Shown one piece after another: positions 4,785 to 57,689 of a DNA stretch of 64,000 nucleotides; positions within the stretch are counted from its first letter, which is position 1, and every line of letters begins with the position of its first letter. A program made the translations under genes and the position numbers. The notes under the pieces are model-generated. The model ran no database searches. It saw nothing but the letters and a program-made list of their open reading frames with translations, and was not told where the DNA came from. This DNA comes from an uncultured Bacteroidales bacterium (lineage in GTDB: Bacteria > Bacteroidota > Bacteroidia > Bacteroidales > TTA-H9), in the NCBI GenBank assembly GCA_964444785.1, contig CAYUII010000005.1:101500-165499 (forward strand), given 5' to 3'.

Positions 4785-5732
4785 ATGCTTAGATTTAACC
4801 TCTTTCTATCATTGATTCTAGTTGTTCTTTTTGTTAATGGACAGAGTGAAGCTGTGCAACTTGATCGTGGAACCTTTCAGATAATGGGGGAGTTGCTGAT
4901 ACCAGCAAATGTCACTAAACCTGATGTTGTTCTGTTTATTTCAGGCAGCGGACCGACAGATCGTGACGGGAATCAAAAGAGTATGAAGAATAACTCGATT
5001 CTTCAGTTGGCGGTAGGACTTCAAAGCAATGGGATTGCATCTCTTCGATATGATAAACGGGGGATTGGAGCCAGCGTAATGAGATCGACTAATGAACGGT
5101 TGATGACTATTGACTCTTTAGTAGGCGATGCAGCCGATTGGATAGAGAAGTTGAAAAAGAGTGGTCGTTTTAATCGAGTGGTGGTAGCTGGCCATAGTGA
5201 GGGCTCACTAATAGGATTGTTAGCAGTATTAAAGGTCGGTGCTGATGGTTTTATCTCGATTAGTGGAGCTGGTCGTCGTGCTACAGACTTGTTGATGGAG
5301 CAACTATCGAAACAACCGGCAAAAGCAAAGAAGTATTATAAGAGTGCATTTGATACCTTGAGCCATGGGGATACACTTAAAGTGGTTGATACTTGGTTTT
5401 ATACCTTGTTAAGACCCTCCGTTCAACCTTATCTGATTAGTTGGTTTAAATACGATCCGGCTCAGTTAATGGGGGCTTTAAAGGTACCATCATTGATAAT
5501 TCAAGGGTTAAATGATCTTCAGATAAAGCAAACTGATGCTGAGTTATTGGCAGCAGCAAACAACAAATCCAGTCTCTGGTTAATTCCGGGAATGAATCAT
5601 GTCCTTAAGATGACAGAAGCTTCAGATATTAATGGACAGATGTCATCCTATACTACTCCTGATAGTCCAATAAATTCAGAGTTAGTGCCAGGAATGAAGC
5701 GGTTTATTTCAGGGTTGCCTTCATCGCATTAA
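4785..5732 (+). CDS. Secreted alpha/beta hydrolase
   Basis: Signal peptide; SGSGPTDRDGN, YDKRG, nucleophile GHSEG, catalytic D (GLND) and H (GMNH). Confidence 0.85.
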   Translation: MLRFNLFLSLILVVLFVNGQSEAVQLDRGTFQIMGELLIPANVTKPDVVLFISGSGPTDRDGNQKSMKNNSILQLAVGLQSNGIASLRYDKRGIGASVMRSTNERLMTIDSLVGDAADWIEKLKKSGRFNRVVVAGHSEGSLIGLLAVLKVGADGFISISGAGRRATDLLMEQLSKQPAKAKKYYKSAFDTLSHGDTLKVVDTWFYTLLRPSVQPYLISWFKYDPAQLMGALKVPSLIIQGLNDLQIKQTDAELLAAANNKSSLWLIPGMNHVLKMTEASDINGQMSSYTTPDSPINSELVPGMKRFISGLPSSH

Positions 5733-5767
5733 GATTTTCTAAGTTGTTATGAAAGGAGCGTGATAAT

Positions 5768-5798
5768 AAAAAAAGCCACCTAAGATAGGCGGCTTTTT
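5768..5798. terminator. Bidirectional intrinsic terminator between the hydrolase and yebC
   Basis: AAAAAGCCACCTA-AGA-TAGGCGGCTTTTT between convergent genes. Confidence 0.75.
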
Positions 5799-5819
5799 CT
5801 GTTTTCTTACTGCAGATGA

Positions 5820-6566
5820 TTACATTGCATCAACGATTTCATCGGTCATCTCCATGTTGTGGTAGATATTCTGCACATCATCATCTTCTTCGAAGATCTC
5901 AACCACTCTTAGAACCTTTTTAGCAGTATCCGGGTCAATGTCCATTGTTGTGATAGGAAGCCTTTGAAGTTGGGCACTTTCCGTCTCGATATTCATTGCT
6001 TCAAGGCGTTTCATGATGCTTCCGAAGTCTTCCATGGCAGAGGTGACTGTAATGAGACCATTTTCATCATCGATATCGATATCTTCGGCACCAGCGTCGA
6101 TGACCTCCATTTCGAAAGTATCAATGTCAGTTACATTGGCTCTTGGGATATTAAAGATGCCTTTACGGTCGAATACATGTGCCAGTGAACCATTTGTACC
6201 AAGGTTACCACCATATTTATTGAAGACGGCGCGAACATTAGCTACCGTTCTTTGGAGGTTATCGGTTAAACACTCAATGAAGATGGCAACGCCATGTACA
6301 TAACCTTCGTAAGTAGTTTCAGTAAAACTTGCCCCATCTTTATCACCGCCTTTACTGATGGCACGCTGAATGTTATCCTTGGGCATACTGGCTCCCTTGG
6401 CATTGGCGATTGCTAATCGAAGACGCGGGTTACCGTCAGGATCGTTGCCTCCTTCTCTTACGGCAATTGTAATTTCTTTAATAATCTTAGAAAAGATCTT
6501 CGAGCGCTTGGCGTCCAGTGCACCTTTTTTACGCTTGATGGTTGACCACTTATTATGTCCTGACAT
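5820..6566 (-). CDS. yebC: YebC/PmpR family DNA-binding regulator / translation-associated factor
   Basis: MSGHNKWSTIKRKKG, NPRLRLAI, YEGY, EEDDDVQNIYHN. Confidence 0.95.
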   Translation of the reverse strand: MSGHNKWSTIKRKKGALDAKRSKIFSKIIKEITIAVREGGNDPDGNPRLRLAIANAKGASMPKDNIQRAISKGGDKDGASFTETTYEGYVHGVAIFIECLTDNLQRTVANVRAVFNKYGGNLGTNGSLAHVFDRKGIFNIPRANVTDIDTFEMEVIDAGAEDIDIDDENGLITVTSAMEDFGSIMKRLEAMNIETESAQLQRLPITTMDIDPDTAKKVLRVVEIFEEDDDVQNIYHNMEMTDEIVDAM

Positions 6567-6677
6567 TTTATTTAGAAGTTAAGGTTTGATTTTGTGCCTA
6601 TTAAGAATAAGAATGCAAAAATAATAAAAAAATAGTGCTTTTCTACCATCATTTATAGGCAAGAGTTAGGTAGATTG

Positions 6678-6713
6678 AAAAAAAACAAAGAGACCGACTA
6701 CAAAGCCGGCCTC
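6678..6713 (-). terminator. Intrinsic terminator of the GIN-domain gene
   Basis: Minus strand GAGGCCGGC-TTTGTA-GTCGGTCTC followed by a T-tract; G:U pairs form on this strand. Confidence 0.7.
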
Positions 6714-6775
6714 CTTACGTCAATAAAAATAATGTAGTTCTAAATCAGAGAGTAAAAAAGTCATAAGTATTGGGA

Positions 6776-8398
6776 TTACCAACTAATTAGAGTAATTCCA
6801 ATGGAGTAGGGGTAGAGCTCAGGGCCTTTTCCATCGCGGAAGAGGGTGGTTAGGCTGTATTTTCCGAACAGATTGATATAACCCCAACCTATTCTGAGCA
6901 TTGCTTCTGCCTTTAAAGGGGTAATGTGGAAGTCATCATGCGTCTTCATAACTCCGTCATCTGAAGTTGTACTGGTACCTACAAGGTGTGAGGTAGCGAA
7001 GTTCTCTCCATCATATAATTCGAAAGGCATATTCTTTTGTGAAAAGACTCTCTTGGTATGTGAGCCGAGTCTTAGACCCAGAAGAACCCCTGCACTAACG
7101 TGAAATTTTTCGATTTTTCTGCTTGGGTGGTTCTGATATTCAAAAAGGATGGGTAGTGTGAGATAGCTGATGGTCAACTTTGATTTCTCCATGTCAACCC
7201 CTTTGTTGTAATAGCCATGAATGCCATTTGATGAGTCAGTGATGGTGACATTATTTCTAAATCTGAAGTTGGTCCATTCTATTCCAAGACCTGTTATCAG
7301 TCCGATGGTTCCAGATGAGTTAAGTTGGATGTTTTGTTCGTAGAGGTTGAGGTGAACACCTACCGACTTAGTCATGTTGTAGTCCATGAAATTGGTCGCT
7401 TCATCGAAGTTGCTGTTCATATCGCTATTAAGATATCCATTGACACTGAGGTCGAATCCACCCCAGTGGCCATCGAAAGAGTTTGTGCGATAGTTCTTTT
7501 TTAGCTTAACATTGCCATCTTCATCAACGACTAGACGATGACGACCAACTTGAACTTCAGTTACCCCATTTCTTTCATTGACCTTAACCCCTAATTTTTT
7601 CGATAATCTAACGTTTACTGTATCCTCATTAGCTCCCGATACGATATCGTTAACCTCCTCATCGTCGGTATCTTCATCGATCTCGTTTTCGTCTTCTTCA
7701 GCTGATTTATTGGTAGTTAGAATAGTAGGGTTGTTTTGATACTTAATTGAACCGGCTCCCGATGTTGTAGCCGAGACCACACCTGTTCCTGCAATCTTTA
7801 TATCACCGGCTCCAGAAGCATTGACTACGCTTTTGGGTGTGTCAAGACGTTCCGCTTTAAGGGAACCAGCTCCACTAACTTCTGCTTCTAATGAGGTAGC
7901 AACACCCGTAAGAACTACATCAGCAGCTCCTGAGATCTCAACCGATACGTCGCCAGCATTAAGGTTGACATTCACATTAGAGGCTCCGCTAGCTTCCATC
8001 TCAAACTTGGATGCAGAAAGAGTAGTGCCTGAAACGGTGTAGACATTGGCTGCTCCACTTACATCTAGAGAGGTAAGGTTGGGTAAAGAGATATAGATGT
8101 TAAGCTCAGATGGGTTTTTGATGTTCCCTTTTGATTTAATCTCAAGAACATTACCTTCAACCTCTGTGATGATATGATCCATAAGGTTATCATCGCTTTC
8201 AACAGTAAGTGAGATTTTTTCAGATGGCGTAATCTCAACATTAAAGGCTCCTCCTACTTTAATGCCTGTAAAACTGCCCACTTCTCTTGTCTGCTTGATA
8301 ACCTCTCCACTGCCGCTTGTTCTCTGTGCCTGTAATGCAAAGGGCAAAATGCATAGAACTAATGCCAGAGAAAATAGAGTTGTAAGTTTCGTTTTCAT
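6776..8398 (-). CDS. Secreted head GIN (DUF2807) domain protein fused to a C-terminal outer-membrane beta-barrel
   Basis: Signal peptide; GSGEVIKQTREVGSFTGI start; repeated xSGAG/SGAS beta-helix units; acidic linker; barrel-like C-terminus ending GITLISW. Confidence 0.8.
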   Translation of the reverse strand: MKTKLTTLFSLALVLCILPFALQAQRTSGSGEVIKQTREVGSFTGIKVGGAFNVEITPSEKISLTVESDDNLMDHIITEVEGNVLEIKSKGNIKNPSELNIYISLPNLTSLDVSGAANVYTVSGTTLSASKFEMEASGASNVNVNLNAGDVSVEISGAADVVLTGVATSLEAEVSGAGSLKAERLDTPKSVVNASGAGDIKIAGTGVVSATTSGAGSIKYQNNPTILTTNKSAEEDENEIDEDTDDEEVNDIVSGANEDTVNVRLSKKLGVKVNERNGVTEVQVGRHRLVVDEDGNVKLKKNYRTNSFDGHWGGFDLSVNGYLNSDMNSNFDEATNFMDYNMTKSVGVHLNLYEQNIQLNSSGTIGLITGLGIEWTNFRFRNNVTITDSSNGIHGYYNKGVDMEKSKLTISYLTLPILFEYQNHPSRKIEKFHVSAGVLLGLRLGSHTKRVFSQKNMPFELYDGENFATSHLVGTSTTSDDGVMKTHDDFHITPLKAEAMLRIGWGYINLFGKYSLTTLFRDGKGPELYPYSIGITLISW

Positions 8399-8432
8399 AG
8401 TTTAGAAATTTTTCGTTTCGTGCGTCTAAATT

Positions 8433-8465
8433 TGTGACGTTGCACGATTTTGAAATGTTACAGCT
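8433..8465 (-). promoter_or_regulatory. ECF sigma-type promoter for the GIN-domain gene
   Basis: Minus strand AGCTGTAACAT-N15-CGTCACA (TGTAAC-N17-CGTC); both boxes identical to the motif at 14502-14534. Confidence 0.75.
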
Positions 8466-8478
8466 TCTTTAAGAAAAT

Positions 8479-10206
8479 TTACAATTTTTCTGAAAGCATG
8501 CTATGTCTCTTACCAAATGTAAAGTAGATGACCAACCCAATTATCAGCCAAATGATAAATCGCATCCAGTTAACGATTCCGAGTTGGGCAATCAGATAGC
8601 CATTAGTAAGTAATCCTAAAACCGGTATTAAACTCCATTTTTTTATGATAGAGAGAAGCGTTAATCCTATTGCAAGAATAAGGAATATGAGTTCGGGGAG
8701 GTAGTGCTTCAATTCGTTCCATCTCAGATAGAATCTATTTCCATTTATCCATTGGGCTAAGAAATTGGCATTACCTGCAAAGTAATACAACGCAAAGATG
8801 GTGACTAAAAGAATAGGGGGTAACCAGAAGCGACAATTAAAGTAGGGCACAATAAATCCTCCAGCTTTATTTTTGAACCCTTTTCCATAAGGATCAAGAA
8901 TTAGGATACCTCCTGAGACCAATAGGAAAGCAAAGAGAGTTCCGATACTGGTTAAATCGGTTACTTCTGTGAGGTTGAGAAAAAGGGAAGGAACAGCAAC
9001 AATGACGCCTGTGATAATGGTTGAGAATCCAGGTGTTTTATATTTTGGATGGAGGGTGCTAAATTTTTTGGGAAGGAGGCCATCTCGACTCATACTCATC
9101 CAAATACGAGGCTGTCCATATTGAAAAACCAATAATACTCCGGCCATTGCAATGATTGCGCTCACAGAGATGATACCTGTAAGCCATTTAAGGTTTAAGA
9201 CCTCAAAGGCGTATGCCAGGGGGTCAGCAACCCCTAATTGTCCGGAAGGGATCATGCCAGTAAGAACTAAACTAATCATAACATAGATAGCTGTGGTAAT
9301 GATTAATGCATAGATCATGGCACGTGGAAGATCTCTTTTGGGGTTTTTAGCCTCTTCGGCTGTTGTTGAGATCGCATCAAATCCTATGTAGGCAAAGAAG
9401 ACCGCTGCAACTCCTGATAGTACCCCGGTGGCACCATTTGGGGCAAAGGGAATCCAATGGTCTGTGTTGATGAAAAATGCTCCTGTAATGATGACTAAAC
9501 CCAGAATGAGGAGTTTAATTAAAACCATGAGATTACCGGCGGTTCGGGTTTCTTTGACTCCCATGTAAACCAAGATGGTTATAAGAACTACAATACTAAA
9601 GGCGGGTATATCCGCAATCAATCTAATCCCGGCAATAGATGGAGCCGTAGTCCACGCAAGAAATGCTTCTTGTAACGATCGGCTAAGGTGTTCTAATGGC
9701 ATCCCTGCAGTTATTTGCTCAGTAGCCTCTTTGAATCCTCTCATAGCGGTTATGTAGTCTGTACACATCCAAGTAGGCAGGTTGATCCCCGTCCCATATA
9801 ACATAGTCGTAAAGTACTCTGACCATGAGATAGCAACAGCGATGTTACCAACTGAATATTCCATGATAAGATCCCACCCGATGATCCAGGCCATTAGCTC
9901 ACCAAAACTGGCATAGGCATAAGTGTAGGCTGAACCTGCAACTGGAATGGCAGAGGCAAATTGTGCGTATGCCAAGGCAGAGAATCCACAGGCGATAGCT
10001 GTAAAGATAAAGAGCAATGAGACGGCTGGTCCGCCAGCTGCCGCAGCATTGCCAATGGTACTGAATATTCCGGCTCCAACTATTGCAGCTATTCCTAATG
10101 CCGTCAGATCAACCACCCTTAACTCTCGTTTCATCCCATTCTCTGTTGAACTGTTATCGAGAATAGATGAGATGCTTTTCTTACGAAAGAGCTTGTTTTC
10201 TGCCAT
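8479..10206 (-). CDS. APC family amino acid permease
   Basis: LGIAAIVGAGIF, GSAYTYAY, FFAYIGFDAIST, GTLFAF; many TM helices. Confidence 0.92.
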   Translation of the reverse strand: MAENKLFRKKSISSILDNSSTENGMKRELRVVDLTALGIAAIVGAGIFSTIGNAAAAGGPAVSLLFIFTAIACGFSALAYAQFASAIPVAGSAYTYAYASFGELMAWIIGWDLIMEYSVGNIAVAISWSEYFTTMLYGTGINLPTWMCTDYITAMRGFKEATEQITAGMPLEHLSRSLQEAFLAWTTAPSIAGIRLIADIPAFSIVVLITILVYMGVKETRTAGNLMVLIKLLILGLVIITGAFFINTDHWIPFAPNGATGVLSGVAAVFFAYIGFDAISTTAEEAKNPKRDLPRAMIYALIITTAIYVMISLVLTGMIPSGQLGVADPLAYAFEVLNLKWLTGIISVSAIIAMAGVLLVFQYGQPRIWMSMSRDGLLPKKFSTLHPKYKTPGFSTIITGVIVAVPSLFLNLTEVTDLTSIGTLFAFLLVSGGILILDPYGKGFKNKAGGFIVPYFNCRFWLPPILLVTIFALYYFAGNANFLAQWINGNRFYLRWNELKHYLPELIFLILAIGLTLLSIIKKWSLIPVLGLLTNGYLIAQLGIVNWMRFIIWLIIGLVIYFTFGKRHSMLSEKL

Positions 10207-10268
10207 AGATAAGAGATTTTGCGGGGTAAATTTAATCTTATTTCACCATTTACCCCTTCCTCTCTTTC

Positions 10269-10925
10269 CTATTTAGGCGAAATCATAAAGATCTCTCTAA
10301 TAATTGGAGTTAGTCCGGCTACCATAAACTCAACGGCAATAACCATTACAATCAAACCCATGAGTTTCATCATAATCTTATTACCTGTCTCTCCTATAAT
10401 CCGCATTATTTTACCTGCACTCATCCATGATATTAGTGTTATTCCTATGGTTATTGCAATAGAGATGATTAAGATGACCTTCATAATCCAGTTTGATGCA
10501 TCTTCCATTAAAACAATGCTATTAGTGATAGCTCCAGGACCCGCAAGTATTGGAATGCCTAGTGGGGTTATAGAAATATCTTCGGCATAAGATTTTGCCT
10601 CTTTTTTGTTGATCTTCATGCGTGAGATACGGGCATTTAACATGTCATAGCCCATGATAAAGAAGATAACACCCCCGGCTATTCTGAACCCACTGGCTGA
10701 GATCCCGAAAACTTTAAAGAGAATCTGTCCGGTAAAGGCAAAGACAACCAAAACTATGAAGGCCATAAAGGTAGCTTTGTAAGCTGTTGCTCTTCTCTGG
10801 CGTTCATCGAGTTTAGAGGTCATTGACATGAAGACGGGGATAGATCCCAATGGATTGATAATTGAAAAATAGGATGTGAAAAAAAGCAAAAAAGTAGTAA
10901 AATAATCGTGTAGTTGAAGATTCAT
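10269..10925 (-). CDS. MarC family inner membrane protein
   Basis: FSIINPLGSIPVF, FRIAGGVIFF, ITPLGIPILAGPGAIT. Confidence 0.9.
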   Translation of the reverse strand: MNLQLHDYFTTFLLFFTSYFSIINPLGSIPVFMSMTSKLDERQRRATAYKATFMAFIVLVVFAFTGQILFKVFGISASGFRIAGGVIFFIMGYDMLNARISRMKINKKEAKSYAEDISITPLGIPILAGPGAITNSIVLMEDASNWIMKVILIISIAITIGITLISWMSAGKIMRIIGETGNKIMMKLMGLIVMVIAVEFMVAGLTPIIREIFMISPK

Positions 10926-10942
10926 TTGTGTACTATTTGATT

Positions 10943-10970
10943 AAAAAGAGGGCCGGTGGTTAACCGGCCC
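10943..10970 (-). terminator. Intrinsic terminator after ftcd
   Basis: GGGCCGGT-GGTTA-ACCGGCCC with a T-run on the minus strand. Confidence 0.7.
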
Positions 10971-10983
10971 GGGTTAAGCTATA

Positions 10984-12675
10984 TTAACCTATTATTTTAG
11001 CATTTACCATATCAAGTAACTCCTCTTCCATTCTTTTAGCTTGAGCTTCAATAGCTGCTCCACGACCAATGATATCGGAGGCAAAGGCTGTGTCAGATAA
11101 TCCGGAGGCATTGATTTTTACATTGAGATAGGCCCCTGAGACGGCTGCTTTAGCTGCTAAAGCACCTACACCGGCATCGGTAACTGAGTTGGGATTCCCA
11201 TTTTCTACCATAGCTGCCAATAACTCGAATGTTTCGAAGGCTTTTTCCATGGTTTTAAATGGAACTTCAGTGGCATAACGGGTTGCTGCCTGAATGGCTG
11301 CTTTCCTAGCTGCTTTCTCTGCATCCGTGTTCTTTGGTAACCCAAATGCATCCATTATCTTGTTGAAAGCGGCCGTGTCTTCATCAACCAGATGGAGTAA
11401 TTCATCTTTTAAAGCCTGACCCTTCTCTGCCCATTTTGAGAACTCCTCCCAACGCTGATCCCAACCTGCTTTATGACTGCTGAGATTAGCAACCATGGCA
11501 CCTAAGGCGGCGGCTAGAGCCCCCATATAGGCTGAGATTGATCCGCCTCCCGGAGCTGGCGATTCACTTGCTGTTTCATTGGCAAAACCAGTACAGGTCA
11601 TGTCAATCAACTTCTTGCTCTTGTTCTCTGCCGCTAGCATATACTCAATGATCTTCTCCTGAGGGTTGAATGGTTTGAGGTCATCAAGCCCCATAGATTT
11701 AACGGCAATTTTTATGATTTCATCCTCCGAGATCCCTAGTGATCTTTCTTGTTTAGCTAAGAAATACTTTCCAGTATCTATCAAAGTACGCTTTGGTACC
11801 AGCCCGACAATCTCTGTACCAGTAACTCTCATTCCCCGATCCATCGCTTTGCGAACGACCTCTTCAAATGCAATATGTAAAGGTGTTACAGAAATATTGG
11901 TGATATTCATGGATACCTGAGCAATACCATATTCATCGATAAACCAACCAATGGCTTTAGTGGCTTTTAACGTACCCGGTACCATGATAGGATTGCCATG
12001 CTCATCTTTCATGGCCTTACCGGTAATAGGATTACCCTCTCTTTTGGGTCTCCCTTTTTCCCTAACATCAAAGGCCACTGCGTTAGCACGACGTGTACTG
12101 GTTGTGTTTAGGTTGAAATTAACTGCTACAAGGAAGTCGCGAGCCCCAATAGCAATAGCACCTGTCTGAGGGACTAGTTTAGCTGGCCCAAAATCGGGTT
12201 TCCATTCTGGTTTGGCCAGCTTATCGGCTAGTCCTTCATATTCACCTGATCTGACAACGGCAAGGTTTCTGCGTTGTGGGCTAAGTGCTGCGCTCTCATA
12301 GCAATAAACAGGGAAATCGAGGTCTCTACCAACTCTTTCGGCCAGTTTATGGGCATATTCTACAGTCTCCTCCATAGTGATGTTAGCAACAGGTACCAAA
12401 GGACAAACATCGGTGGCTCCAAATCTTGGATGAGCCCCTTTATGCTTGGTCATATCGATCACCTCACAAGCCTTTTTGATTGCTCTATAGGCTGCCTCAA
12501 TTACTTCATCAGGGGTGCCAACAAAGGTTACAACCGTGCGGTTGGTAGCTTGTCCGGGGTCAACATCCAGAAGCTTTACTCCTTCTACGGTTTCAATTTG
12601 GTCGGTAATCTGCTTAATAATATTCATGTCGTTCCCTTCTGAAAAATTGGGAACACATTCAATTAGTTTTTTCAT
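10984..12675 (-). CDS. ftcd: Bifunctional glutamate formimidoyltransferase / formimidoyltetrahydrofolate cyclodeaminase
   Basis: MKKLIECVPNFSEG, HKGAHPRFGATDVCP, GARDFLVAVN, SPAPGGGS; ATG 12675 follows the TAnnTTTG box at 12749-12756. Confidence 0.95.
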   Translation of the reverse strand: MKKLIECVPNFSEGNDMNIIKQITDQIETVEGVKLLDVDPGQATNRTVVTFVGTPDEVIEAAYRAIKKACEVIDMTKHKGAHPRFGATDVCPLVPVANITMEETVEYAHKLAERVGRDLDFPVYCYESAALSPQRRNLAVVRSGEYEGLADKLAKPEWKPDFGPAKLVPQTGAIAIGARDFLVAVNFNLNTTSTRRANAVAFDVREKGRPKREGNPITGKAMKDEHGNPIMVPGTLKATKAIGWFIDEYGIAQVSMNITNISVTPLHIAFEEVVRKAMDRGMRVTGTEIVGLVPKRTLIDTGKYFLAKQERSLGISEDEIIKIAVKSMGLDDLKPFNPQEKIIEYMLAAENKSKKLIDMTCTGFANETASESPAPGGGSISAYMGALAAALGAMVANLSSHKAGWDQRWEEFSKWAEKGQALKDELLHLVDEDTAAFNKIMDAFGLPKNTDAEKAARKAAIQAATRYATEVPFKTMEKAFETFELLAAMVENGNPNSVTDAGVGALAAKAAVSGAYLNVKINASGLSDTAFASDIIGRGAAIEAQAKRMEEELLDMVNAKIIG

Positions 12676-12844
12676 TTGATATTGTTTTTTGCGGTAGCTT
12701 GGAATAGCCAAGAGGGATATTAGCAATGTTTATCACCCTTTTAGGCAACAAAGGTATGAACTTTTTAACATCTGATTTAGCCTAATACTCTCTTTAATTG
12801 GCCTTAATCAGAAGAAGCCCGCAACGAAAAAGAGCCGCAATGGC

Positions 12845-13987
12845 TTATTGTCTGCTGTGTGATATTTTAAGAAACTCGCCTCCAATAGAGAATGATTTTA
12901 GCTCTCCGGTTTTAGCTCTCCCGGTCTTTATTTGAAAATCAGCTTCTCTCTTAGAAGTAAGGCTCTCAAGTTTTTTCTCTGCAAACTTGATAAGGTTTGG
13001 AACTCTAAACCCGGTGTAGCCGCCACTCTTCTCTGTTTCTGGTTTTTGCGCAAGAAGGAGCGTGTTTTTCTTCTCCCTTAAACGCAAAGCAGAAATGATT
13101 GGGTTTTGGTAATCGTTTATAACCTGACGATTGGATACCTCAATGCTGGCAAGTTCTATAGGCTGAAGCATCGGAATAACAGATGAGTCTCGTTTTGATA
13201 CTTCGCTAGGTTGTTCTAAGTTATCTATTGATTTACTCTTTCGATGAACAATTGAAGCGGCGAGGGTATTTTTCCTCTGTTTCAAGGCTATATTGTCAAC
13301 TCCATCAGCTTTGGGTGAGTTTGTGGCTAACTGTTTTTCAATTAACTTATTGTCATTGTCTTTGAGAGCTATATCACTCTTCTCTTCTGGCGTTTCCATT
13401 TTCAGATTTGTTCCCTTAGAATACGGATTCAAAAGGGTCAAATCGGGTTGTTTTTGGCCATAGTTACTAGTTGATGGGCTGTTGGTTGAAAAGATCCAAA
13501 TGAGAGCTAGGCTTGCAGCTACTGCTGATAATGGGGCAAGCCATAAAATTCTTCTTCCTAAAACCCGACGTTTAAGGAGTGACTTATTCGGGAATTGTAC
13601 CCTTAAATCTGGCGCAAACCGGATCTTCCCATATAGGTCTAAATCATTTTTAAGACTTGGATTGGCTTCAATAAACTTTTTTAATTCTAGCTTCTCATGA
13701 TTGTCCAATAGTTTCTCATGGAAAGCGATAAAAGTTTCATCGTAGTTATCTATTGAAATAGATTCCGTAGAGATAACCTGATCCTTGTTTTTCTTAAGCT
13801 TGTCTTTTAGAGGGTATTTTTCGGAATCAAAAGAAAAAATAGGCTCCAGTTCAAGGTCTTCTATCTGGATATCCAGCTCCGGATGTTCTGATAAAAAATG
13901 CTCGACAAGAGCTTTTTCCTGCGACGAAAGGTTACCGTCAATATAGTCGGTAAGCCATGCTTCATAATTTTCCAGGTTAATACTCAT
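12845..13987 (-). CDS. Putative membrane anti-sigma factor with a duplicated N-terminal anti-sigma-like domain
   Basis: 5-nt gap after the ECF sigma; N-terminus NYEAWLTDYIDGNLS...FLSEHPEL repeated as NYDETFIAFHEKLL...FIEANPSL; single TM at ~aa 147-165. Confidence 0.7.
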   Translation of the reverse strand: MSINLENYEAWLTDYIDGNLSSQEKALVEHFLSEHPELDIQIEDLELEPIFSFDSEKYPLKDKLKKNKDQVISTESISIDNYDETFIAFHEKLLDNHEKLELKKFIEANPSLKNDLDLYGKIRFAPDLRVQFPNKSLLKRRVLGRRILWLAPLSAVAASLALIWIFSTNSPSTSNYGQKQPDLTLLNPYSKGTNLKMETPEEKSDIALKDNDNKLIEKQLATNSPKADGVDNIALKQRKNTLAASIVHRKSKSIDNLEQPSEVSKRDSSVIPMLQPIELASIEVSNRQVINDYQNPIISALRLREKKNTLLLAQKPETEKSGGYTGFRVPNLIKFAEKKLESLTSKREADFQIKTGRAKTGELKSFSIGGEFLKISHSRQ

Positions 13988-13992
13988 TGTTT

Positions 13993-14478
13993 TTAGATTG
14001 CATTTTCCGGTTTTACAATATACTTTTTCAGCGTGTTTCTTGCCCTGAAGATATATACCTTAACTTGAGATTCTGTCAAATCACATATTTGACCAATCTC
14101 CTCATAGCTGTATCCTTCATAGTCTCTTAGCAGGATAACGGAACGCTGGATCTCGGGTAATCGTTGCAGTGCCTCCTCTAATAACTTTTTTAGGCCGAGG
14201 TATTCTTTTTCACTTCCTGCAACGTCCAATGAGACTTGCTCTATAGAGCTCATTCTACTCTCTTTTCTAATGCTATCAATCATGATATGATAGGCAGAAG
14301 TAAAGAGATATGATTTTGACTTCTCCGCTTGTATATCGGCTGCCTTCTCCCACATCCTGGCAAATGCTTCCTGAACAATATCCTGAGCACGGTCGATATC
14401 GCGAAGATTTTTCGCAATGAACCGATAGACACTGTCGGCATGTTGATCAACGCAGGCGTTATACTCGCTTACAGTCAT
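13993..14478 (-). CDS. ECF RNA polymerase sigma factor
   Basis: Region 2 AQDIVQEAF, KSYLFTSAYH; region 4 LPEIQRSVILLRDYEGYSYEEIG...VKVYIFRAR. Confidence 0.93.
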   Translation of the reverse strand: MTVSEYNACVDQHADSVYRFIAKNLRDIDRAQDIVQEAFARMWEKAADIQAEKSKSYLFTSAYHIMIDSIRKESRMSSIEQVSLDVAGSEKEYLGLKKLLEEALQRLPEIQRSVILLRDYEGYSYEEIGQICDLTESQVKVYIFRARNTLKKYIVKPENAI

Positions 14479-14501
14479 GTGTTTAGGTCTTTCTTCTATG
14501 A

Positions 14502-14534
14502 TGTGACGAAGTTTATCACCCTTATGTTACAGCT
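14502..14534 (-). promoter_or_regulatory. ECF sigma-type (likely autoregulatory) promoter
   Basis: Minus strand AGCTGTAACAT-N15-CGTCACA, ~24 nt upstream of the sigma ATG and just downstream of the lepA terminator. Confidence 0.78.
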
Positions 14535-14539
14535 AAGGT

Positions 14540-14575
14540 AAAAAAAAGCGACCCCAAATATCATTGAGATCGCTT
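14540..14575 (-). terminator. Intrinsic terminator of lepA
   Basis: Minus strand AAGCGATCTCAA-TGATAT-TTGGGGTCGCTT followed by a T-tract. Confidence 0.75.
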
Positions 14576-14610
14576 ATAATATAAAGAGGGGGGTAATCTT
14601 TCCTGTATAA

Positions 14611-16398
14611 TTAATCGAGTTTAAGAACAGCAAGGAAGGCACTTTGGGGAACTTCTACGTTACCAATTTGGCGCATCCTCTTTTTACCTTTTTTCTGTTT
14701 CTCTAGTAGCTTACGTTTACGAGAGATATCTCCACCATAACATTTTGCTGTAACATCTTTTCTAACGGCCTTAATCGTTTCGCGAGCAATGATTTTAGCC
14801 CCGATTGCAGCCTGAATAGCGATGTCGAATTGCTGTCTGGGGATTAGCTCTTTGAGTTTCTCGCACATTCTTCTGCCGAAATTGTAGGCATTATCTCTGT
14901 GGAGGAGGGTGCTTAGGGCATCAACAGAATCACCATTAAGAAGAATGTCAAGCTTACTTAGCTTGGCCTCCTGGTATCCACTGACATGATAATCGAATGA
15001 GGCATAACCCTTAGAGATAGACTTGAGTTTGTCATAGAAGTCAAATACAATTTCCCCCAGAGGAATTTCAAAGACTAACTCGAGTCGATCGGTTGTGAGA
15101 TAAGTTTGGTTTTTTAAGATGCCACGTTTATCGATGCATAATTTCATAATCGCACCGACATAATCGGCCTTAGTGATGATATTGGCAGTGATAAAGGGTT
15201 CTTCTATATAGTCAATCAAGGTCTCGTCAGGTAATCCGGACGGATTGTGTACGTCGAATGACTCACCACTTGTGGTGTATACTTTATACGATACGTTCGG
15301 AACCGTAGTGATCACATCCATGTCAAACTCACGGTCAAGGCGTTCTTGGATGATCTCCATATGAAGTAGACCAAGGAAGCCACATCTGAAGCCAAAACCT
15401 AGAGCTGCGGAAGACTCTGGCTCGAAAACAAGGCTCGCATCGTTGAGCTGAAGTTTTTCGATAGAGGCACGTAACTCTTCATAATCGTCGGCTTCTACAG
15501 GATATATACCGGCAAAAACCATGGGTTTTACGTTTTCGAAGCCTTCGATTGCTTTGTGGCAAGGGTTTTCAACATGGGTGATGGTATCACCTACTTTAAC
15601 CTCTTTTGAGGTTTTAATACCAGAGATAATGTATCCAACATCTCCTGCTGAAAGCTGGTCTCGTTTCTCACGGGTAAGCTTCAAAATACCTATCTCATCT
15701 GCATGATACTCCTTTCCAGTAGCAACAAACTTTACGAAATCGTTCGTGTTAATGGTTCCGTTATATATTCTGAAATAGGCGATGATGCCTCTAAAGGAGT
15801 TAAAGACAGAGTCAAAAATTAAAGCTTGAAGCGGAGCCTCTGGGTCTCCTTTTGGGGCAGGAACACGATGAACAATAGCTTCAAGGATCTCTGGAATACC
15901 AAAACCGGTCTTGGCCGAAGCCAAGAGAATATCATCAGGGTCGCAACCGATTAAATCAACGATTTGCTCGGTTACCTCTTCGATCATTGCATTATCCATA
16001 TCCACTTTGTTCAGGACGGGAATGATCTCCAGGTCATGATCTAAGGCAAGATAAAGATTAGATATAGTTTGAGCTTGAATGCCCTGAGTTGCATCAACAA
16101 CCAATAAGGCTCCTTCACATGCGGCAATTGAACGTGATACCTCATAGGAGAAGTCTACATGGCCAGGGGTATCAATAAGATTAAGAACATAATTGGCTCC
16201 CTCATGAACATACTGCATTTGGATTGCATGACTCTTAATGGTGATTCCCCTTTCTCGTTCCAAATCCATATCATCCAGAACCTGTGCCTGAGCCTCTCGT
16301 TCGGTGATGGTTTTAGTGGTCTCCAGCAGCCTGTCGGCCAGAGTGCTTTTGCCGTGGTCGATATGGGCAATGATACAGAAATTACGGATATTCTTCAT
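14611..16398 (-). CDS. lepA: Translation elongation factor 4
   Basis: [59 protein letters not shown]. Confidence 0.98.
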
Positions 16399-16581
16399 AG
16401 CCTGCAAAGATAGTGAAAAAGACGATTATGTATTATATATCTTCATCATAAGCCAGTCGCAGACGAGGCTTCTAATAACTCGTATTGTGAGGCTTCTATT
16501 AGCGCTGTTTCACTTTTAGTTTCCCTTATTTTCTGTACTTTTGCACCCTTATAGTATCTCCACATAATATTCTGAAAAATA

Positions 16582-19218
16582 ATGAAAGAAATTGCCCCAA
16601 AATTTGATCCCGTCCTTGCCGAAGAACGGTGGTACAGTCACTGGATGCAGAAAGGTTATTTTAGGTCGGTTCCCGATGAAAGAGAACCGTATACTATTGT
16701 AATCCCTCCTCCTAACGTGACCGGGGTGTTGCATATGGGTCATATGCTTAATAATACCATTCAGGATATTTTGATTCGCCGCGCCCGTATGATGGGTAAG
16801 AATGCCCTATGGGTTCCTGGAACCGACCATGCTTCTATAGCTACTGAGGCCAAGGTAGTGGCTAAACTTAAAGCCGATGGTATCGAAAAAGCAGATCTTA
16901 GCCGTGAAGAGTTTCTTCATCATGCATGGCAATGGAAAGAAAAGCATGGTGGAATCATCCTTGAACAACTTAAGAAACTGGGCGCTTCATGCGACTGGGA
17001 ACGGACTGCCTTTACAATGGATGAGTCTCTTTATGAGTCTGTAATCCGTGTGTTCGTCGACCTTTATGACAAAGGTCTTATCTATCGTGGTGTCAGAATG
17101 GTTAACTGGGATCCGAAGGCTCTGACTGCCCTTTCTGATGAAGAGGTCATCTATAAAGAGGTTAATTCAAAGCTTTATTACCTCCGTTATAAAGTAGTTG
17201 ATTCAGATGATGAATGGGTAACCATTGCTACTACCCGTCCTGAAACCATTCTTGGCGATACTGCCGTTTGTGTACATCCGGAGGATGAAAGATATACTCA
17301 TCTCCATGGTAAGAGGGTTCTAGTTCCTCTGGTCAATAGACCTGTCCCCATCATAGTTGATGAGTATGTTGATCGTGAGTTTGGCACAGGATGTCTTAAA
17401 ATAACACCCGCTCACGATGTAAATGACTATAATCTTGGATTAAAGTATAAGTTAGAGACCATTGATATCTTTAATGATAACGGTACCCTCAGTCAAGCTG
17501 CTGGGATGTTTGTAGGTGAAGATAGATTTGATGTTCGCGAAAAAATCATCCCGGCTCTTGAACAAGCCGGTAATATGGTTAAGACCGAGGCCTATGTTAA
17601 CAAGGTAGGGTTCTCGGAAAGAACCGATGTCGTCATTGAGCCCAAACTCTCGTTGCAATGGTTCCTTGATATGAAACGTCTTAGTGAACCTGCTTTACGC
17701 GTTGTGATGGATGATACTATTGCTTTCCATCCGGCTAAGTTTAAAAACACCTATCGCCACTGGATGGAGAATGTCAGAGATTGGTGTATCTCTCGTCAAC
17801 TATGGTGGGGACAAAGAATTCCTGCTTATTATCTGCCTAATCGTGAGGTTGTAGTCGCTTTATCTTCTGAAGAGGCTCTGAAAAAGGCTCAACAGCTTTA
17901 TCCAGAGTTAGGCTTGACTTCTGCTTCCGAGTTAAAACAAGACGAAGATGTACTGGATACTTGGTTCTCTTCCTGGTTGTGGCCTATCTCGGTATTTGAC
18001 GGAATAAGAAACCCTGAAAATGCTGATATTAAATATTACTATCCGACAAATGATCTGATTACAGCCCCCGAGATCCTCTTCTTCTGGGTAGCCAGAATGA
18101 TTATGGCCGGCATAGAGTATCGTAACGATATTCCTTTTAAAAATGTCTATCTTACCGGCATCGTAAGAGATAAGCTTGGTCGGAAGATGTCGAAATCGCT
18201 AGGGAACTCTCCTGATCCTCTTGATCTGATTAAACAGTATGGGGCCGATGGAGTAAGAGTGGGTATGCTACTGACTTCACCTGCTGGAAATGACTTACCT
18301 TTTGATGACTCTCTCTGCGAACAGGGACGTAACTTCAGTAACAAAATCTGGAATGCACTTCGACTGGTTACAGGATGGAATGTTGATGTCAACCTTCCTC
18401 AACCCGAATATGCTCGAATCAGTATTGAATGGTTTGAAGCAAAGTTTAACCATGCGATGGTTCAGATTAATGAACACTTTGATCGATACAGACTCTCTGA
18501 TGCCCTAATGGCAGCTTATAAGCTGACCTGGGATGATTTCTGCTCATGGTATCTTGAGATGGTTAAGCCCGGTTATCAGCAGCCTATTGATGCCGTTACC
18601 TTTAATGCTACCGTTGACTTCTTCGGACGTATTCTTAGAATGCTTCATCCTTTTATGCCCTTCATCACGGAAGAGATGTGGCATCTATTATTTGAAAATA
18701 CCGATAAAGATATCATTGTTTCTGAATGGCCTGCTGTTGTTGCCGCAGATGAGACTCTTCTTCAGAAGTTTGAGTTTGCCGCAGAGGTCATTAATGCTAT
18801 TCGTGCCTTAAGACAGGATAAGGGCATCTCAAATAGAGATTCTATTGATCTTTTTATCAAAAAGAATGATGAGGCTTCTGACACTACTCTTGATTGTGTG
18901 GTTGTAAAGCTTTGCAATTTGAGCTCTGTAACCTATGTAAACGAGAAACCCGCTGGTGCACTCTCTCTTATTGTAAAATCTACAGAGTTTTATATTCCTG
19001 TCAGTGATAAAGTGGATGTAGCAGCAGAGCTGGAGCGCCTTGAAGCAGATCTTAAATATACCCGTGGGTTCCTTAATTCTGTAATGGGCAAACTGAATAA
19101 TGAGAAGTTTGTCAATGGAGCTCCTAAGTCGGTTGTTGATAATGAACTAAAAAAGAAGGCTGATGCTGAAGCCCGTATTAAAGTTCTGGAGGATCAGATA
19201 GCTACACTGAAAGGGTAA
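16582..19218 (+). CDS. valS: Valine--tRNA ligase
   Basis: [13 protein letters not shown] (HIGH), [17 protein letters not shown]-terminal coiled coil; TAnnTTTG box at 16536-16543. Confidence 0.98.
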
Positions 19219-56673: not shown

Positions 56674-56702
56674 TGTAACCCATTAGATTAATTAGCGTCT
56701 CA
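56674..56702 (+). promoter_or_regulatory. ECF-type promoter upstream of the ABC/M1 operon
   Basis: TGTAAC-N16-CGTCTCA, close to the TGTAAC-N17-CGTCACA motif before the ECF sigma gene. Confidence 0.55.
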
Positions 56703-56816
56703 GAGTCAATTAAACCATGTCATTTTGAAACCAACACTACGAAAAGTAAATCTTTTCTTCAGTGATGTGACTCATAATCTAGCCAATTCTAATTGATCAT
56801 TAAACCTTTATCTCAG

Positions 56817-57689
56817 ATGCAACTAACAATTAGTGGTCTTAGCAAAACATATGCAAATGGCACCAGAGCTCTGCATGATGTTAATCTTACTATGAATACC
56901 GGAATGTTTGGCCTCGTTGGCCCCAATGGTGCCGGCAAGTCGACTTTGATGAGAACGTTAGCAACCTTGCAAGACGCTGACCAAGGGAGTGTCTTACTTG
57001 ACGAATTGGATGTCTTGAATGATAAAACCTCTGTCAGGAAGATATTAGGCTATCTGCCTCAAGAATTTGGCCTTTATCCTAAGGTGAATGCTGAGGTTTT
57101 GCTAAATCATATTGCTGAAATGAAAGGTATTGCCGCCAAAGCTGAACGAAAAGAGTTAGTCGATTGGTTGTTAAATAAGACCAATCTCTATCAGTTTAGA
57201 AAAAAGAATTTAGGCGGGTTCTCTGGTGGTATGAAGCAACGTTTTGGCATTGCCCAAGCGTTGATTGGAAATCCTAAACTGATTATTGTAGATGAACCTA
57301 CAGCAGGACTTGATCCGGCTGAAAGAAACCGATTCCATAATCTGCTTAGCGAGATTGGTGAGAATGTCATTGTTATTTTATCAACTCATATCATAGAAGA
57401 TGTGAAGAGTCTCTGCAACCAGATGGCCATTATCAATCTGGGTGAGGTATTATTACAAGGACATCCTGATGAGGTTATACAACAATTAAACGGCAAGGTT
57501 TGGCGAAAACTGATCAATAAGAGTGACCTTACTAATATGACAGGAATCGAGATCATTTCTTCAAGACTGTTAAGAGGAATGATTGAGGTAACCGTTGTCT
57601 CTGACACAATTCCGGATAGTGGTTTTGTTCAGGCTGAACCAGGCCTAGAGGATGTCTATTTTTCATACGTCAGAAACATAAATCAGTAA
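56817..57689 (+). CDS. ABC transporter ATP-binding protein
   Basis: Walker A GPNGAGKST, signature FSGGMKQR, Walker B IIVDEP, STH; ATG 56817 preferred. Confidence 0.95.
   Translation: MQLTISGLSKTYANGTRALHDVNLTMNTGMFGLVGPNGAGKSTLMRTLATLQDADQGSVLLDELDVLNDKTSVRKILGYLPQEFGLYPKVNAEVLLNHIAEMKGIAAKAERKELVDWLLNKTNLYQFRKKNLGGFSGGMKQRFGIAQALIGNPKLIIVDEPTAGLDPAERNRFHNLLSEIGENVIVILSTHIIEDVKSLCNQMAIINLGEVLLQGHPDEVIQQLNGKVWRKLINKSDLTNMTGIEIISSRLLRGMIEVTVVSDTIPDSGFVQAEPGLEDVYFSYVRNINQ

Follow-up and report, generated by a model that had tools for sequence, protein, structure and literature searches.

The window, the 64-kb stretch of DNA analysed here, comes from an uncultured Bacteroidota bacterium. Its minus strand carries an ECF sigma factor gene, followed by the gene for a single-pass membrane protein, a block of three genes (FTCD, MarC and an amino-acid permease) and a gene for an outer-membrane protein that joins a GIN domain to a β-barrel (Table 1). 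Pfam upholds the identities that the first-pass annotation had given to the sigma, FTCD, MarC, permease and GIN/barrel genes, and a membrane protein does adjoin the sigma gene.

Table 1. Features of the sigma factor locus in the 64-kb window.
Feature	Position	Strand	Basis or detail
lepA terminator-like hairpin	14546..14575	-	12-pair stem, then T-run
ECF-type promoter of the sigma operon (proposed to be autoregulatory)	14502..14534	-	exact motif, RNA starts, conservation
Boxes of the sigma-operon promoter	-35 TGTAAC 14531..14526; -10 CGTC 14508..14505	-	17-nt spacer; -10 extended to CGTCACA
ECF (group 4) sigma factor, 161 aa	13993..14478	-	Pfam Sigma70_r2, Sigma70_r4_2, Sigma70_ECF
Putative anti-sigma factor, 380 aa, single-pass membrane protein	12845..13987	-	position, topology
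Inserted block, FTCD + MarC + amino-acid permease	8479..12726	-	Pfam; locus comparison
FTCD	10984-12675/12726	-	Pfam
MarC	10269-10925	-	Pfam
Amino-acid permease	8479-10206	-	Pfam
Second ECF-type promoter copy, ahead of the GIN/barrel gene	8433..8465	-	exact motif, RNA starts, conservation
Boxes of the GIN-gene promoter	-35 TGTAAC 8462..8457; -10 CGTC 8439..8436	-	17-nt spacer; -10 extended to CGTCACA
GIN/barrel gene, 540-aa outer-membrane protein	6776..8398	-	Pfam DUF2807 + OMP_b-brl_2; AF2 model
Intrinsic terminator-like hairpin, end of the GIN/barrel transcript	6685..6718	-	15-pair stem, then T-run

The sigma factor has the make-up of an ECF (group 4) protein: it falls within the short length of such proteins (about 160–200 aa) and contains only sigma-70 regions 2 (Sigma70_r2, residues 10–75) and 4 (Sigma70_r4_2, residues 99–150), and it scores 79.6 bits against TIGR02937, whose cutoff is 42.9. 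It belongs to a very large orthologous family of 161-aa proteins in Bacteroidota. The closest NCBIfam model is NF058625 (sigma_PG0214/GFO_1088), but the score of 110.4 bits lies below the cutoff of 130 bits, which rules out membership of this equivalog, and the cutoff is reached by none of the 18 orthologs tested (best E 1.4e-34). Because the window protein and all 18 orthologs score below the cutoff, the family to which they belong is, judging from these scores, a sister of NF058625. The second-best NCBIfam model, that of the SigM subfamily (TIGR02950), is likewise ruled out (102.2 bits versus a cutoff of 147.95), and the score is also below the cutoff of the SigW model. In the Staron / Casas-Pastor classification, where groups are assigned by group-specific HMMs and conserved genomic context, ECF03 is the group found mainly in Bacteroidetes.

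An ECF sigma factor is typically, though not universally, co-transcribed with its cognate anti-sigma factor. Here RNA contigs cover the sigma gene together with the next gene, which begins 6 nt past the sigma stop. The product of this second gene has two N-terminal helical repeats (residues ~5–45 and ~78–122) and a transmembrane helix (~145–168), beyond which a periplasmic linker, which is variable, leads to a small C-terminal module that is conserved. The family alignment shows conservation of the repeats (NYExxxLDYLDGxL...FLxxNPxLxxE) and of the transmembrane segment; AF2 models only the N-terminal helices and the transmembrane helix with confidence, the rest of the model being poor. No significant Pfam match and no relative in the PDB were found for the protein; similarity to zf-HC2 is sub-threshold and appears in 5 of 28 family members (best E 0.008; 0.062 for the window protein). 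Its position, its topology and this sub-threshold similarity suggest that it is an anti-sigma factor.

The GIN/barrel protein consists of a signal peptide, a DUF2807/GIN (Toastrack) β-helix (residues 26–228), a disordered acidic linker (230–278) and a β-barrel (314–540). The GIN domain is assigned to the Toastrack superfamily by a DUF2807 score of 140.7 bits (cutoff 24.2; residues 43–224), and the barrel by an OMP_b-brl_2 score of 36.3 bits. In Foldseek searches with the AF2 model (pLDDT 82.7), the β-helix matches 3PET and 4OPW, both described as 'putative adhesins', with a TM-score of up to 0.85 (3PET; target-normalised, E 1.4e-11), while the barrel gives weak matches to OmpA, OmpX, Ail and PagL. 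With a signal peptide ahead of it and an outer-membrane barrel joined to it, the GIN domain must be either periplasmic or surface-exposed. A classical (type Va) autotransporter, with a 12-stranded C-terminal Autotransporter β-domain and a helical linker through the pore, is rejected. Pfam finds no Autotransporter domain in the protein or its orthologs, the barrel matching OMP_b-brl_2 only; in the AF2 model the disordered, acidic linker is followed by β-hairpins and has no helix; the autotransporter structures AaaA and EspP are weak matches only (Foldseek probability 0.15–0.6); and the GIN 'passenger' is absent altogether from 7 orthologs.

Ahead of both the sigma gene and the GIN/barrel gene lies the same 33-nt motif, AGCTGTAACAT-N15-CGTCACA, of which the window holds exactly these two copies, both on the minus strand. 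The motif had no match in 100 dinucleotide-preserving shuffles of the window, and its core, TGTAAC-N17-CGTC, is confined to the same two sites (0.05 expected); permitting spacers of N15–18 adds one core match, at 56674–56699 on the plus strand. The spacers themselves are unlike: the sigma-gene copy has ATAAGGGTGATAAACTT, the GIN-gene copy ATTTCAAAATCGTGCAA. The exact search and the shuffles thus bear out the earlier observation of two minus-strand copies with identical boxes and spacing and unrelated spacers. The CGTCACA end lies 23 nt from the sigma ATG (14478) and 34 nt from the GIN/barrel ATG (8398). The general ECF promoter form, known from sigma-W, sigma-X and sigma-M of B. subtilis and reportedly set out by Staron in 2009, pairs AAC in the -35 element with CGT(C) in the -10 element across a spacer of 16/17 nt. 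The sigma-gene promoter, which sits between the lepA terminator hairpin and the sigma ATG, has AAC and CGT in these elements at a distance within 16–17 nt.

Comparison of 80 related Bacteroidota loci with 1.16 Mb of flanking DNA shows that the motif is both conserved and specific. TGTAAC-N16/17-CGTC is found 94 times in these loci, against 3.1 times in shuffles, and all but one of the copies are on the sigma strand and directly upstream of either the sigma ortholog (63) or the third gene (about 30). The strict motif precedes the sigma gene at 63 of the 80 loci and a relaxed form does so at all 80; at 17 of the sigma loci, and at several loci for the third gene, only the relaxed form matches. 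In both promoter classes the consensus is yTGTAACwww...(C)CGTCwyA, with positions outside the search pattern included, and the distance from motif to start codon has a median of 31 nt. Both promoters of a 93% relative (L002) retain identical boxes around diverged spacers. On this comparative evidence the motif is to be read as a phylogenetic footprint of this sigma family. The proposal in the first-pass annotation, that the ECF motifs ahead of the sigma and GIN genes are cognate promoters, gains support from this footprint in 80 orthologous loci and from the same consensus at the third gene.

The RNA evidence comes from assembled metatranscriptome contigs, which carry no strand information and no 5'-end enrichment, so that their ends approximate transcription starts within about 5–30 nt. 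Contigs of the sigma operon start at 14467–14491 in five metatranscriptomes, 11–35 nt downstream of the box, and 11–15 nt past it in the two best-covered runs. Contigs of the GIN/barrel gene start at 8428 (X4, depth 55), 8415 (X27, X29), 8408 (X30) and 8390 (X31), and in four of five independent metatranscriptomes, including the deepest, the start lies 5–25 nt downstream of the box. In X25, whose contig set is identical to that of X26, the contig reaches 8473, 8 nt upstream of the GIN-gene -35 region, and therefore some read-through or another start exists. Starts just downstream of the CGTC boxes had been anticipated, and contigs do start past both boxes with little or no RNA upstream, apart from this one run 8 nt beyond the GIN box.

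The transcription units are bracketed by terminator hairpins. The lepA contigs end at 14569–14595 (X4: 14569) and are followed by an RNA gap to 14491; the lepA hairpin insulates the sigma promoter from upstream transcription. In X4, RNA is continuous from the sigma gene into FTCD (contig 10992..14487), FTCD also having its own contig start near 12730–12767 and a terminator at 10970–10950. The GIN/barrel RNA forms a monocistronic unit (8428..6706) between promoter and terminator, and its contigs end at 6704–6713 in five runs. Over six runs the permease has a depth of 0–3 versus 8–55 over the GIN/barrel gene; in X4 the values are 0 and 55 (contig 6706..8428). The X4 pattern recurs in X25, X27, X29, X30 and X31.

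The gene order common among relatives is lepA, sigma, anti-sigma, [promoter], GIN/barrel, yebC. Only the window contig (L001, L123) and L002/L092, from the species of the window and the 93% relative, have the ftcd-marC-permease block between the anti-sigma and GIN genes; the other 79 loci lack it. The GIN gene has become detached elsewhere and still carries the motif: in L030/L082 about 112 kb of a 4.84-Mb chromosome separate it from the sigma gene, further detached genes with the motif are found in L087, L005, L026, L035 and L037, and a GIN-only gene in L125 has it as well. The second promoter is ancestral, because the common order has a promoter before the GIN gene and relocated GIN genes keep the motif. 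The synteny comparison called for in the first-pass annotation thus recovers an ancestral sigma-antisigma-GIN cluster, and the idea that the three-gene block split this unit agrees with the common order and with the narrow distribution of the block. The GIN promoter, however, predates the separation, and since a GIN gene next to the anti-sigma gene already has its own copy, neither retention nor gain of a promoter on separation needs to be invoked.

The adjacent ECF sigma factor very probably has both box pairs as its cognate promoters, one autoregulating the sigma/anti-sigma operon and the other driving the monocistronic GIN/barrel gene. This reading starts from direct observations: a motif that is conserved and specific, the synteny, and RNA starts at both sites. 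The RNA data and the 80 related genomes indicate that both promoters are real; that the adjacent sigma, and not a paralog, reads the boxes and so controls transcription of the GIN gene is the likely extension. In the proposed mechanism, the single-pass membrane protein would use its N-terminal helical modules to hold the sigma factor at the inner membrane in an inactive state, until an envelope signal, which we infer to be sensed by or passed to its periplasmic part, frees the sigma. RNA polymerase bearing the sigma would then initiate about 6–8 nt past CGTC at both promoters, so that the sigma/anti-sigma pair is amplified and the outer-membrane protein is made. For the GIN/barrel protein we infer the role of main, and perhaps only, structural output. 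The ancestral three-gene cluster (lepA, sigma, anti-sigma, P, GIN/barrel, yebC) would have had two promoters, and in this lineage a 4.4-kb ftcd-marC-permease block would have been inserted downstream of the anti-sigma gene and ahead of the second promoter, which stayed with the GIN gene. For now the regulon looks minimal, consisting of the sigma operon and one outer-membrane protein, and the locus would represent a stress regulon that is small and well supported but ordinary in its mechanism; its host is an uncultured Bacteroidota bacterium from wastewater.

B. subtilis has overlapping ECF regulons, and cross-recognition is conceivable in Bacteroidota with their many ECF paralogs, so the boxes might be of ECF type and yet be read mainly by a paralogous sigma encoded elsewhere, the adjacent sigma being one of several users or a non-user. 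Bacteroidota have about 22 ECF sigmas per genome on average (PMC7826278). This reading is improbable: the motif tracks the orthologous sigma over 80 genomes, with the relaxed form directly upstream in all of them, it occurs almost nowhere else in the flanking 1.16 Mb, and the sigma and target genes are ancestrally adjacent. Still less likely is a shared operator for a DNA-binding repressor or activator, with transcription starting from nearby Bacteroidota sigma-A promoters. The contigs give approximate starts only, and positions 8479–8472, into which the X25 contig extends (8473), nearly match the sigma-A -7 element (TAAATTTT); the motif, however, is bipartite with a fixed 16/17-nt spacing and a free spacer, is neither a palindrome nor a direct repeat, fits the AAC/CGT signature of ECF promoters and keeps a constrained distance to start codons, and the GIN RNA begins past the boxes, not at 8465, in four of the five independent runs. 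Read-through out of the permease or FTCD units as the source of GIN/barrel expression, with the second motif copy a non-functional relic, is scarcely credible, since the co-orientation of all genes from lepA to yebC and the continuity of X4 RNA into FTCD are outweighed by the permease depth, by the terminator after FTCD and by the retention of the motif, with identical boxes in L002 and with copies ahead of relocated GIN genes in unrelated contexts.

As a proposed system of two promoters read by the adjacent sigma, the locus resembles sigma-W, sigma-X and sigma-M of B. subtilis, which are autoregulated ECF sigmas with membrane anti-sigma factors and promoters such as TGAAAC-N16-CGTA and TGTAAC-N17-CGAC. 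It shares with them the (T)GTAAC -35 element, the 16–17-nt spacer, the CGT(C) -10 element and co-transcription of the sigma with its (here putative) anti-sigma from an autoregulated promoter. A Toastrack-family protein in an envelope-stress regulon is also common to both, YvlB being the one in the B. subtilis sigma-W regulon. The phylum, the two membranes, the target fused to an outer-membrane β-barrel and the apparently single-target regulon set the present system apart. Like FecI-FecR-FecA, it combines an ECF sigma with a regulator that crosses the inner membrane once and with an outer-membrane β-barrel gene that has a sigma-type promoter and is usually adjacent. FecIRA-type cell-surface signalling is nevertheless rejected. 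There the outer-membrane protein is both sensor and target. The barrel here is small and OmpA/OmpX-like, and Pfam finds no match to TonB_dep_Rec, Plug, STN or FecR in the three window proteins or their orthologs, which leaves the system without a TonB-dependent transducer, an N-terminal signalling domain or a FecR domain.

The nearest curated sigma family is that of the P. gingivalis PG0214 cluster, although the window sigma scores below the NF058625 cutoff; the papers examined report no promoter or regulon of PG0214. P. gingivalis likewise pairs an ECF sigma with a GIN-domain gene at a distance: the PG0214-18 ECF cluster and the unlinked gene PG0419, whose product is annotated as DUF2807 (PMC10434189), decrease together when PG1236 or CdhR is mutated (PMC11018363, PMC10434189). 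Another P. gingivalis DUF2807 protein, PGN_1547, has an experimentally supported role in adhesion and biofilm formation (PMC10949514). The Toastrack (DUF4097/DUF2154/DUF2807) partners LiaF, LiaG, VraT and PspC fusions share the β-helix fold represented by 3PET and 4OPW. Toastrack domains, including those linked to Lia, show recurrent genomic coupling to stress-responsive transcription systems, sigma factors among them, and are inferred to be intracellular and sub-membrane (PMC11237479). The window protein shares this coupling to a stress-responsive transcription system; unlike those partners, it carries its GIN domain after a signal peptide and joined to an outer-membrane barrel.

The motif AGCTGTAACAT-N15-CGTCACA, made up of a -35 box (TGTAAC) and a -10 box (CGTC, extended to CGTCACA), occurs exactly twice in the window, once before the sigma gene and once before the GIN/barrel gene, and had no match across 100 shuffles. 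The first-pass annotation had claimed identical boxes and spacing at two sites with unrelated spacers, and the scan confirms it. The ten-base core TGTAAC-N17-CGTC is found at the same two places only, and relaxing the spacing adds a single site on the plus strand. Derivation of the pair from a repeat element can be dismissed, as there are just two copies, with unrelated spacers and without extended flank similarity. The distance from the end of the box to the start codon is 23 nt for the sigma gene and 34 nt for the GIN gene. A scan for sigma-70-type promoters, which is not informative for Bacteroidota, gave a count at chance level. A 124-kb contig from a sludge/wastewater metagenome contains the window, whose closest named relative is a 'Sphingobacteriia bacterium' MAG.

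Genes, promoter motifs and other features of the region, in window coordinates
Feature	Position	Strand	Remarks
Gene run lepA, sigma, 380-aa protein, FTCD, MarC, permease, GIN/barrel, yebC	16407 to 5820	minus	all genes on this strand
Promoter motif before sigma gene	14534..14502	minus
Promoter motif before GIN/barrel gene	8465..8433	minus
Sigma gene		minus	161 aa, ECF; Sigma70_r2 + r4_2
380-aa membrane protein (putative anti-sigma)	12845-13987	minus	start 6 nt past sigma stop
FTCD, MarC, amino-acid permease		minus	between anti-sigma and GIN genes
FTCD gene region	10984-12770	minus
Target protein (GIN/barrel)		minus	540 aa; DUF2807/GIN + OMP_b-brl_2
Terminator-like hairpin after lepA	14575-14546
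Terminator-like hairpin after anti-sigma gene	12840-12819		weak
Terminator-like hairpin after FTCD	10970-10950		strong
Terminator-like hairpin after GIN	6718-6685
13-mer AAGGGTGATAAAC, copy 1	14511-14523	minus	sigma-promoter spacer
13-mer AAGGGTGATAAAC, copy 2	12728-12740	minus	anti-sigma/FTCD intergenic region
Third core match, TGTAACCCATTAGATTAATTAGCGTCTCA	56674-56699	plus	N16 spacing; 118 nt upstream of ABC ATPase gene
ABC ATPase gene	56817-57689
ABC-2 permease/peptidase M1 fusion gene	57693-61277		1194 aa; follows ABC ATPase gene

The organism is present in several public metatranscriptomes, whose assembled contigs carry no strand and whose contig ends approximate RNA ends. In the best-covered run (X4), a contig of depth 55.5 spans 6706..8428 and covers the GIN/barrel gene alone; it starts 5 nt past the last base of CGTCACA and ends within the terminator hairpin, and the permease gene directly upstream has a depth of 0. 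A second contig of this run (10992..14487) carries sigma, anti-sigma and FTCD and starts 15 nt past the sigma box, while the lepA contig ends at 14569. Other runs give similar boundaries, with GIN contigs starting at 8415 (X27, X29), 8408 (X30) and 8390 (X31), sigma contigs at 14491 (X29) and 14467 (X27), lepA contigs ending at 14588-14595, and a permease depth of 0-3. The contig boundaries and hairpins thus place both motifs in RNA-free gaps directly before transcript starts, insulated from upstream transcription. A partial exception is X25, whose GIN contig runs on to 8473 and passes the -35 region by 8 nt; there is thus some read-through or a minor start further upstream. The contig set of X26 over the region is identical to that of X25; the studies behind the two differ and the labels are freshwater and lake-water metatranscriptome, yet this is probably a double deposit of one dataset, and it was counted once. 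A search of two raw-read runs (X38, X39) for strand and exact 5' ends returned no reads of the organism. Across six runs, the lepA-normalised ranks of sigma and GIN depth gave a non-significant correlation (rho ~0.66, n=6). Contig depth also measures expression poorly, and the comparison is given no weight here.

A separate transcription start for FTCD is suggested by four runs in which its RNA contigs begin at 12730-12767. In X4, FTCD RNA is continuous with that of the sigma operon, and hence the weak hairpin after the anti-sigma gene passes some read-through. The 13-mer AAGGGTGATAAAC has exactly two copies in the window, and the second lies where FTCD contigs begin (12730-12732). The flanks of the two copies show a weak in-register alignment (26/39), and the FTCD copy is without -35 or -10 boxes. 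In the 93% relative (L002) the FTCD-upstream block is kept and the sigma spacer is different. Micro gene conversion and a shared operator are both possible explanations of the pair.

The sigma factor belongs to a very large family, with orthologous 161-aa proteins in Bacteroidota that are 55-67% identical to it. When one genome per species was scanned, giving 80 loci, the strict form TGTAAC-N16/17-CGTC preceded the sigma ortholog in 63 of them and a relaxed form in all 80, at a median distance of 31 nt from CGTC to the start codon. The 1.16 Mb of these loci hold 94 copies of the strict motif, compared with 3.1 (maximum 7) in local shuffles. All copies but one lie on the sigma strand, and they fall into two classes, either directly upstream of the sigma gene or between the second and third genes. 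Both classes have the consensus yTGTAACwww-N13/14-(C)CGTCwyA, in which positions that were not part of the search are conserved as well, the A three bases past CGTC being present in more than 90% of sites. In the 93% relative both sites have kept the extended boxes unchanged and the spacers have diverged, which reads as a classic phylogenetic footprint. The same relative carries a ~93-nt insertion in the GIN 5' leader (~12770-12830, compared with 8399-8432 in the window), located between the conserved leader block GACGCACGAAACGAA, which is kept, and the start codon. An Rfam search of window positions 5000-17000 found no matches, and the conserved 5' UTR blocks are therefore not explained by a known leader RNA.

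The common gene order among the relatives is lepA, sigma, anti-sigma, third gene and yebC, with the third gene (the counterpart of GIN/barrel) starting ~1.6-1.8 kb past the sigma start. The anti-sigma gene is separated from the GIN promoter by ftcd-marC-permease only in the window's species (L001, L123) and in L002/L092. The GIN gene is 1.4-7 kb away in four other loci (L005, L026, L035, L037), and the motif is present each time. On a complete 4.84-Mb chromosome the sigma gene (L030) and the GIN/barrel gene (L082) are ~112 kb apart; the latter lies between genes for a 2-hydroxyacid dehydrogenase and an acetate kinase and has CTGTAACAAAATGAACTACCTCCCCGTCATA 31 nt before its ATG. The module is carried by the complete chromosomes OY781436.1, OZ223471.1 and OZ245863.1. 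In another locus (L087) a detached GIN gene with the motif is still together with yebC, and on a contig from a metagenome (L125), where no sigma gene is near, the extended motif precedes a secreted GIN-only protein of 240 aa. Retention of the motif at common and broken junctions alike argues that the second promoter is ancestral, a property of the target gene with which it moves. The earlier suggestion that an ancestral sigma-antisigma-GIN unit had been split is supported by the common order, with the refinement that the promoter predates the split. Since the target promoter is kept through repeated rearrangements, the regulon can be traced even where the genes are unlinked. In one lineage (L084-L086, 5714-9641), the cluster adjoins convergent Omp85-family and TamB/AsmA-like genes, which have a role in outer-membrane protein biogenesis. 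The motif of these loci, AGTAAC-N17-CGTC, extends exactly to the ATG called for GIN, and for this reason the real start codon probably lies further downstream.

The regulon appears to be small by the searches made. No further target was found within +/-10 kb of the 80 sigma genes, and when JGI metagenome contigs were scanned for the extended motif in its species-specific form, the recognisable targets were sigma and GIN-type (GIN/barrel, GIN-only) promoters only. About 38 other JGI matches were rejected as motif instances, being recurrent unrelated sequences with conserved 'spacers' on homologous marine or phage-like contigs. Most exact extended-motif matches among L088-L134 are three recurrent unrelated sequences with invariant 'spacers', for example GCTGTAACATTTGGCACACTGCAAGCGTCACA on many marine contigs. 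Such matches to homologous DNA call for caution in pattern-only regulon scans of metagenomes. The third core match in the window has a -10 extension that fits and a -35 flank that does not, and low-depth RNA contigs begin 30-65 nt downstream of it (56731-56766). It is possibly an extra regulon member and possibly a chance match.

The nearest NCBIfam model to the sigma factor is NF058625 (the sigma_PG0214 / GFO_1088 family), with a score of 110 bits against a cutoff of 130 that none of 18 sigma orthologs reaches, which makes it a sister family of NF058625 rather than a member. The 380-aa protein has no significant family match in Pfam and no relative in a PDB profile search. Its family has two tandem N-terminal helical repeats (NYExxxLDYLDGxL...FLxxNPxLxxE), sub-threshold similarity to zf-HC2 in 5 of 28 members, a transmembrane helix, a fast-evolving linker and, at the C terminus, a conserved module of ~60 aa. 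The AF2 model (pLDDT 52) is confident for the N-terminal helices and the transmembrane helix only. Position, topology and the weak similarity suggest that it is an anti-sigma factor. The N-terminal duplication (residues ~5-45 and 78-122) is family-wide, and by tblastn residues 74-143 match twice within the same region in L015 and L061. Such a double anti-sigma-domain-like repeat is unusual.

The AF2 model of the GIN/barrel protein (pLDDT 82.7) comprises a signal peptide, a beta-helix (26-228), a disordered acidic linker and a small beta-barrel. For the beta-helix the matches are the Toastrack exemplars 3PET and 4OPW ('putative adhesin' structures from Bacteroides), and the barrel has weak similarity to OmpA, OmpX, Ail and PagL. 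A classical autotransporter was considered and rejected, as the protein lacks the defining features. The OMP_b-brl_2 barrel is present in 27 of 30 third-gene products and DUF2807 in 23. Seven short products (277-322 aa; L006, L031, L034, L040, L072, L073, L075), encoded at ~11.6-12.7 kb in locus coordinates, are without the GIN domain and keep the linker, barrel and promoter, which makes the barrel part the constant element. These barrel-only genes together with the GIN-only gene of L125 show that the target is built of two modules, GIN and barrel, that can be separated.

The Toastrack domain unifies three Pfam models, DUF2807 among them, and recurs as a partner of signalling systems for envelope stress, also in operons that hold sigma factors (PMC11237479). 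The authors inferred an intracellular location (PMC11237479), which cannot hold for a fusion of signal peptide and outer-membrane barrel as in the window; a Toastrack domain outside the cytoplasm thus contrasts with the published inference. Mutants of PG1236 and CdhR in P. gingivalis show a joint decrease of the PG0214-18 ECF cluster and PG0419 (PMC11018363), and PG0419 is annotated as a DUF2807 protein (PMC10434189). An adhesin and biofilm role has been found for PGN_1547, also a DUF2807 protein of this species (PMC10949514). PG0419 and PG0421 may correspond to PGN_1547/PGN_1548, a pair of neighbouring DUF2807 genes. The adhesin-like DUF2807 proteins of P. gingivalis may fall under ECF (PG0214-type) control.

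The interpretation as an ECF regulon with a GIN/barrel target is supported, the motif, its specificity and conservation, the transcript boundaries and the synteny being direct observations. For an uncultured organism, the backing of an ECF regulon by three independent kinds of public data (motif statistics, deep phylogenetic footprinting and in situ metatranscriptomes) is rare from sequence alone. A literature search found no paper on the sigma / anti-sigma / GIN-barrel module or its promoter, and none on GFO_1088. New here is a widely conserved and uncharacterised module; its Toastrack-barrel target is unusual, and the promoter of the target demonstrably moves along with it. The work defines a three-gene Bacteroidota module, in which sigma, anti-sigma, promoter and GIN/barrel follow one another between lepA and yebC, and the sigma factor paired with its promoter is a candidate for an orthogonal synthetic-biology part in Bacteroidota.

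The proposed mechanism is the standard ECF one. The membrane protein, as putative anti-sigma, would sequester sigma until an envelope cue frees it; the sigma holoenzyme would then initiate 6-8 nt past CGTC at both promoters (at ~8428-8430 and ~14495-14499), amplifying the sigma/anti-sigma pair and making the outer-membrane protein. That sigma and promoters are cognate and that the 380-aa protein acts as the anti-sigma is our inference, as are the signal and what the outer-membrane protein does; its function may lie in remodelling of the envelope, in adhesion, or in sensing as the anti-sigma's partner. A specific and rather unlikely form of the last is that the GIN/barrel protein is the outer-membrane partner of the anti-sigma, its periplasmic beta-helix docking on the small conserved C-terminal periplasmic module (residues ~296-380) and reporting the state of the outer membrane. 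This stays compatible with the data because the three genes were ancestrally contiguous, because conservation extends to the barrel part and to the C-terminal module of the anti-sigma, and because Toastrack domains are recurrent signalling scaffolds. If true, the GIN/barrel protein would be both target and sensor or feedback element of a previously undescribed three-component trans-envelope signalling system, widespread in Bacteroidota, with a logic like that of FecA but without TonB.
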